Notes: generated from the sequence alone by a model not told the origin. Shown: positions 24,689 through 45,959, numbered from the stretch's first letter. The stretch: 64,000 bases of DNA from Sulfuritalea sp. (GCA_030651305.1 JAUSCI010000073.1:5155-69154); one strand, 5' to 3'. Numbers and translations: made by a program.

Positions 24689-25584
24689 ACGAAACGATGC
24701 CATCGGCCAAAATCCTGCTTGCCGGTTGCGCCGGGCAACTTGGCCGCGAATTGAAGCGGTCGCTGGCCTGCCTCGGCAATGTTATCGCCTGCGACCGGCA
24801 CCAGCTTGATCTCGCCCAGGCCGATGCCCTGCGCGAGGCCGTGCGTACCATCGCCCCCACGGTAATCGTTAACGCCGCCGCCTACACCGCCGTGGACAGG
24901 GCCGAAGCCGAGCCGGCCGTGGCCGACACGATCAATGCCGTGGCGCCCGACATCCTCGCCGGGGAAGCGAAGCGGCTGGGCGCGCTGCTGATCCACTATT
25001 CGACCGACTACGTTTTCGACGGCAGCAAGGCAACGGCCTACACGGAAGACGACAACCCTGCGCCCCTGTCAGCTTATGGCCGCAGCAAGCTCCGCGGCGA
25101 ACAGGCCATCGCCGCCTCGGGTGCCCGGCACCTGATTTTCCGCACCAGCTGGGTGTACGGCCTGCATGGCGCCAACTTCATGAAAACCATGCTGCGCATG
25201 GGCCGCCGCAGTTGCGAGACGAGCGATGAACTGCGCGTTATCGGAGACCAGATCGGCGCGCCGACGTGGACGCGCCATCTGGCCGATGTCACGGCCCTGG
25301 TCATCGCCCGCCGCGATATTCCCGGCGGTCTGTATCACCTGACCGCGGCCGGCGAGACCAGTTGGCACGGCTATGCCGAAGCCATTTTCGCCGCGGCGCG
25401 AGCTGCCGGATTGCTGGACAAATCGCCCGTGGCGCGCCGTATCACCAGCGCCGACTATCCACTGCCCGCGGCGCGACCGGCCAACTCGCGGCTTGACTGC
25501 TCGCGTTTCAGGCGCGACTTCGGCCTGGCCCTGCCCGACTGGCGCATCGGATTGATCGATTGCCTCGCCGACGCGCACTTCTAA
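24685..25584 (+). CDS. rfbD: dTDP-4-dehydrorhamnose reductase
   Basis: GQLG, VNAAAYTAVDRAE, YSTDYVFDG and YGRSK; ATGA overlap with rfbC. Confidence 0.95.
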   Translation: MNETMPSAKILLAGCAGQLGRELKRSLACLGNVIACDRHQLDLAQADALREAVRTIAPTVIVNAAAYTAVDRAEAEPAVADTINAVAPDILAGEAKRLGALLIHYSTDYVFDGSKATAYTEDDNPAPLSAYGRSKLRGEQAIAASGARHLIFRTSWVYGLHGANFMKTMLRMGRRSCETSDELRVIGDQIGAPTWTRHLADVTALVIARRDIPGGLYHLTAAGETSWHGYAEAIFAAARAAGLLDKSPVARRITSADYPLPAARPANSRLDCSRFRRDFGLALPDWRIGLIDCLADAHF

Positions 25585-25594
25585 AATGCAGTTG

Positions 25595-25675
25595 GACGCA
25601 AAGACGCAAAGGCGCAAAGGAATTCAAGAACAGAATTCGCCGTTGGTCTACTTTGCGTCTTTGCGCCTTTGCGTC
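25595..25675. repeat. Intergenic inverted repeat with arms of three tandem 8-bp (A/G)CGCAAAG units (element A)
   Basis: Left arm GACGCAAAG-ACGCAAAG-GCGCAAAG (25595-25619), 31-bp spacer, right arm CTTTGCGT-CTTTGCGC-CTTTGCGTC (25651-25675). Confidence 0.92.
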
Positions 25676-25701
25676 GAAAGCACTTAGGATCAATCCCCGA
25701 T

Positions 25702-27678
<1,977 letters not shown>

Positions 27679-27704
27679 AGAACCATGAAATTCAGAATCG
27701 ATTC

Positions 27705-27819
27705 AGCCACAGAGATCACAGAGGACACAGAGAAAAACCCTCGTGTCATCGACACGACTCTATTGTCACAGCTGAAATGGAATTGCTTTATCTCTGTGAG
27801 CTCTGTGTCCTCTGTGGCT
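27705..27819. repeat. Intergenic inverted repeat with arms of three tandem 9-bp NN-CACAGAG units (element B)
   Basis: CACAGAG at 27708/27717/27726 and CTCTGTG at 27792/27801/27810; outer AGC/GCT; the 57-bp spacer contains the hairpin TCGTGTC-ATC-GACACGA. Confidence 0.93.
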
Positions 27820-27833
27820 AAAAGGTTTTCGGC

Positions 27834-30218
<2,385 letters not shown>

Positions 30219-45864: not shown

Positions 45865-45959
45865 TTAGCCACAGAGCACACAGAGAGCACAGAGAAAAGC
45901 ATGTGGTATTGCTCTGTGTCCTCTGTGATCTCTGTGTCCTCTGTGTCCTCTGTGGCTAA
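45865..45959. repeat. Intergenic inverted repeat of 9-bp NN-CACAGAG units, 3 left and 5 right (element C)
   Basis: CACAGAG at 45870/45879/45888; CTCTGTG at 45912/45921/45930/45939/45948; outer TTAGC/GCTAA; 17-bp spacer. Confidence 0.93.

Follow-up and report, generated by a model that had tools for sequence, protein, structure and literature searches.

The parE-parC junction in a 64,000-nucleotide stretch of Sulfuritalea sp. DNA (GCA_030651305.1 JAUSCI010000073.1:5155-69154; hereafter the window) is filled by an inverted-repeat hairpin, element B. As a whole, B is best explained as a gene-less copy, resembling a MITE (an inverted-repeat transposable element of miniature size), of a hairpin cassette that encloses a gene for a GxxExxY protein, and we give this explanation a probability of about 0.6. 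The membership of B in a family of hairpins and the history of its insertion are established, whereas the integration chemistry, the role of the protein and the processing of the RNA are what we infer. The parts of B, in window coordinates, are as follows.

27684-27689, + strand: left CATGAA, candidate target-site duplication, 18 nt before the left arm.
27690-27707, + strand: left outer flank ATTCAGAATCGATTCAGC, a diverged form of the family flank (G)AAAACCtTTTAGC.
27708-27732, + strand: left arm, CACAGAG AT CACAGAG GA CACAGAG, three 7-bp cores at a 9-bp period.
27733-27791, no strand: loop, 59 bp between cores, with its own small hairpin; inverted in two congeneric genomes (G005 and G019).
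27792-27816, + strand: right arm, CTCTGTG AG CTCTGTG TC CTCTGTG.
27817-27832, + strand: right outer flank GCTAAAAGGTTTTCGG, in agreement with the family consensus.
27833-27838, + strand: right CATGAA, 16 nt after the right arm; includes the parC start at 27834-27836.

Direct reading of the sequence places AGC at 27705-27707 and GCT after the right arm as the borders of the arms. The arms are inverted and contain 3 + 3 units, the family being defined by at least two CACAGAG units per arm at a 9-bp period. An earlier note on this window, made from the sequence alone, had reported such CACAGAG-NN arms between parE and parC, and this description holds. The spacer it gave as 57 bp measures 59 bp between the cores (27733-27791), and the 7-bp hairpin it noticed inside the spacer is present (GUGUCAUCGACAC). 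The pattern CACAGAGNNCACAGAG occurs 10 times in the window, compared with 0.03 expected from 100 shuffles, and all occurrences lie in B or in a second hairpin of the same design, element C. B also has flanks of the family type, whose outer parts read AAAACCtTTTAGC / GCTAAaaGGTTTT and whose inner parts read AAAA(G)C / G(C)TTTT. Its right flank matches fully, its left flank is diverged, with ATTCAGC kept and AAAACC displaced, and the AAAAA and TTTAT at the two ends of its loop are what is left of the inner AAAAGC/GCTTTT, which in the full-length copy directly adjoin the gene. The AAGG of the right flank is located 9 nt upstream of the parC ATG, the usual place of a Shine-Dalgarno sequence. A clustered regularly interspaced short palindromic repeat (CRISPR) array, which would show direct repeats of 24-48 bp with unique spacers of comparable length between them, was rejected, because in B the units follow one another without a gap, with a period of 9 bp, and its two arrays are inverted.

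B belongs to a large family. The genome of the window (G000; 3.9 Mb, 82 contigs, 61.6% GC), whose parE is best matched by Sulfuritalea metagenome-assembled genomes, contains 50 CACAGAG arrays in forward and 45 in reverse orientation, from which 44 clean pairs can be assembled, and the total number of hairpins of this family is about 45-50. Most elements have 3 + 3 units (range 2-8), and their loops of 16-80 bp are mutually dissimilar. Alignment of 95 arms on the outermost core gives the consensus aAAACC(t)TTTAGC-(CACAGAG-NN)2-CACAGAG-AAAAgC, and the complete element reads aAAACC(t)TTTAGC-(arms)-AAAAgC...GcTTTT-(arms)-GCTAAaaGGTTTT. The linkers are variable around a fixed core (GA 46%, AT 19%, GG 11% and GT 10% genome-wide), as the earlier note had seen in the window, and their first base is nearly always a purine. 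Linkers in the two arms of an element are independent of each other (equal in 20/43 outer positions vs 18.6 expected, and in 2/29 inner positions vs 4.5); therefore neither arm is a copy of the other, and pairing between linkers is not maintained. The same census bears out the earlier view of B and C as dispersed copies with conserved arms and flanks and unrelated loops, the similarity between them beyond the arms being part of the family consensus flanks, and it extends the family far beyond the copies in the window.

The hairpins are located in narrow gaps between genes. Gene calls from a crude open reading frame (ORF)/GC3 filter place 25 elements between co-directional, 12 between convergent and 5 between divergent genes. 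The elements nearly fill these gaps, with a median distance from the arm of 19 nt to the start codon and 21 nt to the stop codon, and 17 of the 25 element-adjacent starts have a Shine-Dalgarno-like tetramer no more than 16 nt away, in most cases the flank's AAGG. At C56:47186-47246, the upstream gene in G000 stops at a TAG that the GCTA end of the element itself creates, and the final few residues of its product are unlike those of the G018 orthologue (L179). Judged from such termini, hairpins can rewrite the ends of adjoining genes. A search of Rfam at permissive thresholds gave no match for B, and for element C only sub-threshold chance matches to miRNA precursors.

One element, at C57:269-682, is a full-length copy, in which the 364-bp loop is a minus-strand ORF of 121 aa. 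The product matches TIGR04256 'GxxExxY protein' (E 1e-38) and PF13366 PDDEXK_3 (E 5e-39), a family listed as of function unknown (PMC3424549). The gene is single copy, as a tblastn search of G000 found no paralogue. This copy shares with the gene-less copies the CACAGAG-NN arms, the outer flanks (GAAAACCtaTTTAGC / GCTAAgaGGTTTT; as read, GAAAACCTATTTAGC / GCTAAGAGGTTTT) and the inner AAAAGC / GCTTTT. Since arms, outer flanks and inner ends are the same, B and its ~44 siblings look gene-deleted, which agrees with the earlier description of B as an empty cassette.

The GxxExxY proteins are strongly conserved. Twelve positions are invariant in 44 proteins taken from the loci described below (G23, E26, Y29, Y54, D65, E75, K77, Q89, Y93, N106, F107 and R118). 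Among them, E26, D65, E75 and K77 form the predicted active site (E...D...ExK), which is intact. The AlphaFold model (pLDDT, the predicted local distance difference test score, 95.5) contains a Cas4/lambda-exonuclease-like core. Its fold matches are Cas4 SSO0001, lambda exonuclease, AF1548, an archaeal Holliday-junction resolvase (Hjc-like) and a splicing endonuclease. All of them are weak (E >= 1.5e-3, template-modeling score ~0.5), and therefore no precise functional analogue can be named; the Protein Data Bank gave no match to a sequence homologue. As modeled, the protein is a minimal PD-(D/E)XK nuclease, and its fold does not reveal the substrate.

The association between gene and arms extends over many genera. 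In 41 relatives, 17/17 GxxExxY genes lie between inverted tandem 8-9-bp units, and a sample of 301 Proteobacteria adds 30/30 further loci with inverted tandem arms, so that all 47 inspected loci have them. The units around the inspected genes are of CRCRRAG type, with cores that vary by locus and lineage (CACAGAG(A), CGCAGAG, CACRGAG, CGCAGAT, CGCAAAG, CACGAAGG and CACGGCGA). Certain operon junctions recur among the loci of the phylum, namely trpD-trpC, trpE-trpG, ribF-ileS, sufB-sufC and serS. Within the genus, a CACAGAG-armed GxxExxY gene adjoins serS in G005, G018 and G009 (orthologues L095, L097 and L098); CACAGAG arms number 124 and 64 in the richest genomes, G005 and G018, and 11 in G009. 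All 12 genomes of the genus with the gene have CRCRGAG arrays (4-165 arms), and 5 genomes without arrays are also without the gene. The remaining 8 comprise 7 genomes with arrays (4-103 arms) in which no gene was detected, and G019, which has one arm; 4 of these 8 genomes are incomplete metagenome-assembled genomes, and G020 is 99% complete. Moreover, the ~12 empty hairpins of G002 are built of CGCAGAGG, the unit of the arms of its resident gene.

The palindromic, intergenic and multi-copy character of the family also recalls repetitive extragenic palindromic (REP) elements and their paired form, REPINs, which are mobilised by the REP-associated tyrosine transposase (RAYT) of the Y1/HUH class. 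That B is such an element is exceedingly improbable. G000 does contain a Y1_Tnp-like gene at C68:44737-45069; the hairpins have no GTAG head, genuine GTAG-type REPs are present as separate elements in G018, and the RAYT family PF01797 (Y1_Tnp) has no match in G005, which is 99% complete and has the most arms (124). A RAYT/Y1 transposase as partner was rejected on this phyletic pattern. The earlier note, which took B for neither a CRISPR nor a plain terminator, can thus be widened to exclude REP/RAYT as well. As a separate observation, PF01797 has two matches in G000, one at C68:44737-45069 and one at C9:2499-2693, which is interrupted by TGA and located ~2.5 kb before the window; neither is associated with CACAGAG hairpins.

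The history of B can be read from the parE-parC junction of 30 congeneric genomes, which shows presence, absence and inversion of the element. B is found only in G000, G018 and G005 (155-bp gap) and in G019 (140 bp), and ~20 other junctions of the genus are 5-21 bp long, typically TGA-tgagc-ATGAAC. By this comparison, B was inserted in the ancestor of the four species, at a time when the parE-parC junction measured 5-6 nt. The CATGAA on both sides of B fits an insertion with duplication into an ancestral TGA-n5-CATGAAC junction; clean 7-9-bp duplications are present at a few other copies, and many copies, among them three recent ones, are without. In G005 and G019, the interior of B (arms, linkers and loop) is reverse-complemented relative to G000 and G018, with the outer flanks unchanged. 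Such inversion is common among orthologous copies: G000 and G005 differ in orientation at 6 copies and agree at 10, and G000 and G018 differ at 2 and agree at ~10. From these alignments, the interior flips between the inverted arms.

A 50-codon frame (27685-27837) runs through the whole hairpin, from an ATG at 27685-27687, 6 nt past the parE stop, to a TGA at 27835-27837 that overlaps the parC ATG. It is very unlikely that B encodes a 50-aa peptide coupling the translation of parE to that of parC, as in insertions of the mycobacterial interspersed repetitive unit (MIRU) type. Although the frame is open in G018 and, despite the inversion, in G005, and an ATG...TGA bridge also exists in a copy found only in G005 (at the site of window 24689-24709), the frame is broken in G019 (ATA, early stop). 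In addition, the arms are almost stop-free in all frames on both strands, so that open frames are expected by chance, and most other copies have no suitably placed start; on these two grounds a bridging ORF was rejected as a general feature of the family. The frame in B is probably due to chance, though it might help to keep the translation of the two genes coupled.

Orthologous sites were sought with probes taken from the flanks of all 44 G000 elements. Most sites are also filled in G005 and/or G018; for 14 combinations of element and species the site is empty. Over the 40 kb of synteny surrounding the window, a hairpin of another unit type (element A) is present only in G000, C is present in G005 and not in G018, and G005 has one extra copy. 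This G005-only copy provides the clearest case of target duplication. The empty G018 site is an overlapping stop/start (ATGA), ...cgcATGAgaatc, and the filled site reads cccATGAA, element, cccATGAAgatc, with an 8-bp duplication around the copy (CCCATGAA). Similarly, the element at C39:58336 is flanked by ATGACCC(AG), copied from the first codons of the downstream gene. At the orthologous site in G018 (L178, contig C27), there is no hairpin, and both 9-bp copies (ATGACGCAG ... ATGACCCAG) surround a 23-bp remnant, which looks like the scar of a lost element. Across the family, direct 7-mers flank 8 of the 44 elements, compared with 2.3 expected from mismatched flank pairs, and most of them contain ATGAA or TTCAT. 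Because many copies are without a clean duplication, we regard a 7-9-bp duplication at ATGA-type stop/start junctions as supported by these sites and not as general. In gene-bearing cassettes across the phylum, the ends are typically ATGAA(n)ACC on the left and GGT(t/g)AAAGGnTTT-ATG on the right; such ends fit an element that spares the upstream stop and the downstream start and brings a Shine-Dalgarno sequence.

Three parE-parC junctions counted as empty are 21 bp long, in L138 (G008; GAACCTGTTTCTGCAGAAGAC), L142 (G011; GAAACCGTTGCTGCAGAGATC) and L144 (G340; GAACCTGATTCAAGAGAAGAG). Each looks like an outer flank joined to one degenerate unit and could be an excision footprint or a proto-site. 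Moreover, at junctions with a CACAGAG hairpin in G000, the palindrome found in G018 is often another one (L208, L209, L211-L212 and others). The G000 sites with a different or REP-like palindrome in G018 include C18:494, C29:88819, C33:156806, C36:23375, C68:34917 and C70:38483, and several of the replacement palindromes are GTAG-headed and REP-like (TGTAGGAGCGAGCTTGCTCGCGAA ... TTCGCGAGCAAGCTCGCTCCTACA). The same operon junctions thus seem, from the sites aligned, to be reused by unrelated palindromic elements.

The variation in unit number (2-8), both between copies and between orthologues, might also be produced if the arrays were simple-sequence repeats grown in place by slippage. Such a reading has been given to the GGGAATC arrays of Xanthomonas, which form 70-75 convergent heptamer-array pairs per genome at conserved intergenic sites and were called simple-sequence repeats with non-B DNA (G-quadruplex) potential (Rehm et al. 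2015, PMC4692102). The 21-bp junctions that look like one flank plus one unit could be taken in the same sense. Slippage is nevertheless highly improbable for B, as it leaves unexplained the non-repetitive flanks, the inverted pairing, the duplicated host borders and the gene-bearing copy with identical ends.

The heptamers themselves are under a distinct constraint. In 34 pairwise comparisons of orthologous gene-less copies between G000 and G005 or G018, with the interior re-inverted where needed, the cores differ at 1.4% of positions (18/1316), an estimate helped somewhat by the choice of G000 copies with perfect cores and by an aligner that may slide units (112 core positions gapped). The linkers differ at 18.9% (46/243), the loops at 19.9% (213/1073), the 16-nt outer flanks at 13.5% and the next 44 nt, which are mostly coding, at 13.3%. 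The cores therefore change 14-fold slower than linkers and loops. A 14-fold contrast between positions 1-7 and 8-9 of one 9-mer is hard to explain by descent alone, and gene conversion is not a suitable explanation, because conversion tracts would homogenise the linkers too. Sequence is kept, and not pairing, and the simplest reading is a protein that recognises each heptamer sequence-specifically. The proposal of the earlier note that arm units are recognition sites fits this slow change of the cores.

At the RNA level, the predicted fold of 27676-27840 is very stable (-62.4 kcal/mol, z = -6.5 vs shuffles) and consists of 10 bp, a 2x2 loop, 7 bp, a 2x2 loop and 8 bp, with the two 2x2 loops falling at linkers. 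This stability, the retention of B in four species, the filling of short gaps beside stops and starts of mostly co-directional or convergent genes, and the cutting of comparable stems by RNase III would all suit a host-selected RNA element, that is, a processing or stabilising hairpin or a translational insulator that regulates parE/parC and other operons and is no longer mobile. We consider such an origin quite unlikely. The cores are invariant without compensatory changes, and opposite linkers pair no more than chance. The interior flips freely, and in sister species the junctions are empty or contain unrelated REP-like palindromes. Furthermore, the folding energies of sense and antisense strands do not differ in the 25 co-directional copies (-1.0 +/- 1.1 kcal/mol, 13 vs 11), and hence there is no positive sign of RNA-level selection.

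If B is a gene-less copy of the GxxExxY cassette, the cassette would integrate at or near ATGA/ATGAA stop-start operon junctions and duplicate 7-9 bp. Through this duplication the upstream stop and the downstream start would both survive, and the right end would supply an AAGG Shine-Dalgarno sequence. The tandem heptamers would be bound sequence-specifically, most probably in trans by the protein that the cassette itself encodes, and the action of this protein on empty copies would keep them mobile or maintained. In the parE-parC mRNA, the interrupted stem of ~25-45 bp may be a substrate of RNase III, as in the 23S rRNA intervening sequences (IVSs) and in Correia elements; cutting would part the parE and parC RNAs and would not terminate transcription. 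G000 contains an RNase III gene, and an effect on topoisomerase IV mRNA is plausible by analogy alone.

A second family of the same design is present in G000. A search for tandem units of any kind that are paired with an inverted array revealed ~14 hairpins of GTGAAAN units at a 7-bp period. At C55:20704-21104, GTGAAAN arms surround a gene for a four-helix-bundle ("23S rRNA IVS") protein (TIGR02436 E 5e-35, weak Avd match), and the gene-less copies (for example C20:80901-80964, C47:81266-81340 and C81:37399-37498) sit just 5' of start codons in operons. The earlier note had mentioned that arms of this kind sometimes bracket GxxExxY or four-helix-bundle genes, and both are found in G000 (C57 and C55). 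Its idea of an exchangeable cargo has no counterpart in these data, as a single gene family accompanies each arm type, and the differences between loops come from divergence and flipping. More tentatively, GxxExxY and four-helix-bundle (S23p/Avd-like) proteins might each recognise the heptamers of their own arms and, with these arms, represent one widespread, unrecognised class of prokaryotic selfish 'foldback cassettes', with stop/start integration and 7-9-bp duplication, delivery of a ribosome-binding site, dozens of constrained gene-less copies, and a role as the source of the 23S rRNA IVSs. This wider proposal we hold to be possible and rather doubtful.

Several observations weigh against the gene-less cassette explanation. 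Clean target duplications are found in a minority of copies, and empty-site alignments of the three youngest G000-specific insertions (A, C20:160532 and C68:31459) show no clean duplication. Arms are present without a detected gene in G006 (103 arms), G021 (68) and the nearly complete G020 (23), and a 121-aa nuclease by itself is unlikely to be a complete transposase. The GTGAAAN design, with its non-enzymatic four-helix bundle, indicates that the enclosed protein may be cargo or binder and not mobiliser. No gene with CGCAAAG arms, those of element A, was found in the G000 assembly, so that A is without a cognate gene there. The crude gene calls, the favoured estimate for the cores and the equal folding energies of the two strands belong on the same side.

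Some of these points would be accommodated by an ordinary MITE moved in trans by a conventional insertion sequence (IS) transposase, with the GxxExxY and four-helix-bundle genes as passengers. Duplications of 7-9 bp are typical of DDE transposases, one design with two unrelated small proteins, one of them a non-enzyme, would be natural, and arms would persist in genomes without the gene. We still judge this to be unlikely. The gene-plus-arms unit in 47/47 loci, from many genera and with lineage-specific units, is hard to attribute to chance passengers. The conservation of internal heptamers, with outer flanks drifting by 13.5%, is the reverse of what a transposase reading terminal repeats would leave, and the sole gene-bearing relative encodes a PD-(D/E)XK protein, no systematic search for a matching IS having been made.

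The neighbouring features in the window are the following.

25597-25673, no strand: element A, (CGCAAAG-N)x3 inverted arms, 8-bp period, 31-bp loop.
25669-27678, + strand: parE, topoisomerase IV subunit B (Pfam DNA_gyraseB, Toprim, HATPase_c, DNA_gyraseB_C); stop TGA at 27676-27678.
27834-30218, + strand: parC, topoisomerase IV subunit A (Pfam DNA_topoisoIV, E 3e-132).
45870-45954, no strand: element C, CACAGAG family, 3 units / 17-bp loop / 5 units, between convergent genes.

Element C is occupied in G005 (3/4 units) and empty in G018. Element A has no counterpart at the orthologous rmlD-parE junction of G005 and G018 and is the sole hairpin of CGCAAAG type in G000; on this comparison it is an insertion specific to G000 and separate from B. 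Arms of CGCAAAG are rare in the genus (G002 and G019), and in another family they enclose a GxxExxY gene (G027, L100). The earlier note drew a connection from the fact that two of the three copies flank parE. This connection is weak, as A has another unit and is confined to G000, and B is older and shared by four species. Nor is a special link with topoisomerase IV indicated, as the hairpins fill many operon junctions.

Our analysis suggests that PF13366/TIGR04256 proteins, ORF-bearing rRNA IVSs and inverted heptamer arrays, the last so far described only as simple repeats, may be one system. To our knowledge, the origin and mobility of ORF-bearing rRNA IVSs have been open questions since ~1990. 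G000 offers a test bed, with one nuclease gene and ~45 empty hairpins that have the same arms, and in parallel one four-helix-bundle gene and ~14 hairpins with different arms. The 14-fold slower change of the cores gives the GxxExxY protein a specific candidate substrate. If ATGA targeting is true, the duplication of both codons and the delivery of a ribosome-binding site would let a selfish element persist within operons by elegant means. For annotation, the hairpins shift start and stop codons of adjoining genes.

No description of the CACAGAG/GxxExxY cassette family was found in the searchable literature. There, the term 'GxxExxY' led to no paper on this cassette, and exact CACAGAG and GTGAAAC array sequences returned unrelated primer matches only. 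The closest known thing is, in our assessment, the ORF-bearing 23S rRNA IVS of Coxiella burnetii and Leptospira (PMC4990558). In both systems a long terminal inverted repeat carries a small ORF in its loop. The Coxiella IVS contains an S23p (four-helix-bundle) ORF inside a 28-bp terminal inverted repeat, and its stem, which RNase III cuts, is composed of 2-3 tandem GACAGAT heptamers in strain-variable number, with the ORF starting directly after the last unit (PMC4990558). B likewise has a long stem of tandem heptamers. In addition, the IVSs show a sporadic distribution that points to horizontal spread, and their protein family is that of the four-helix-bundle protein inside the GTGAAAN arms of G000. 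Unlike the IVSs, which occupy helix 25 or 45 of the 23S rRNA gene, the family of B lies between protein-coding genes (parE and parC for B), uses a PD-(D/E)XK nuclease and has dozens of gene-less copies; RNase III cutting is here a prediction.

The MITEs of operons, Correia in Neisseria and Chunjie in Geobacter (PMC10969869), resemble B and its family in being short, non-coding and multi-copy, with inverted ends and, here at a minority of copies, clean target duplications, and in inserting between cistrons without destroying the operon. Correia terminal inverted repeats folded in mRNAs are cut by RNase III (PMC10969869). These MITEs, however, are derived from ISs, keep the IS terminal repeats and have interiors conserved by descent, whereas the CACAGAG family has conserved internal heptamers, free linkers, an unconstrained loop and a 121-aa nuclease that is not a transposase of a known family. 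The REP/REPIN-RAYT systems share with it tens to hundreds of intergenic palindromes, one or a few small cognate genes per genome and lineage-specific variants. They differ from the tandem-unit arms described here in their GTAG heads and HUH/Y1 protein, and the presence of RAYT does not track the arms.

The GGGAATC arrays of Xanthomonas and the GGGGAYT arrays of Nostoc (PMC4692102) are also tandem heptamers, often in convergent inverted pairs. These arrays are ~90% intergenic and, like the hairpins here, lie mostly between co-directional genes, near an ORF and at conserved loci. Their units are G-rich, with a 7-bp period and no linkers, and conserved flanks, enclosed genes and insertion polymorphism were not reported for them (PMC4692102). 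Finally, integron attC sites resemble the arms in being imperfect inverted repeats, variable at the centre, that delimit small genes without promoters and are recognised by both structure and sequence. The attC sites form arrays beside an integrase, one per cassette, whereas the CACAGAG cassettes have two symmetric arms per gene, are dispersed singly and are associated with no integrase.

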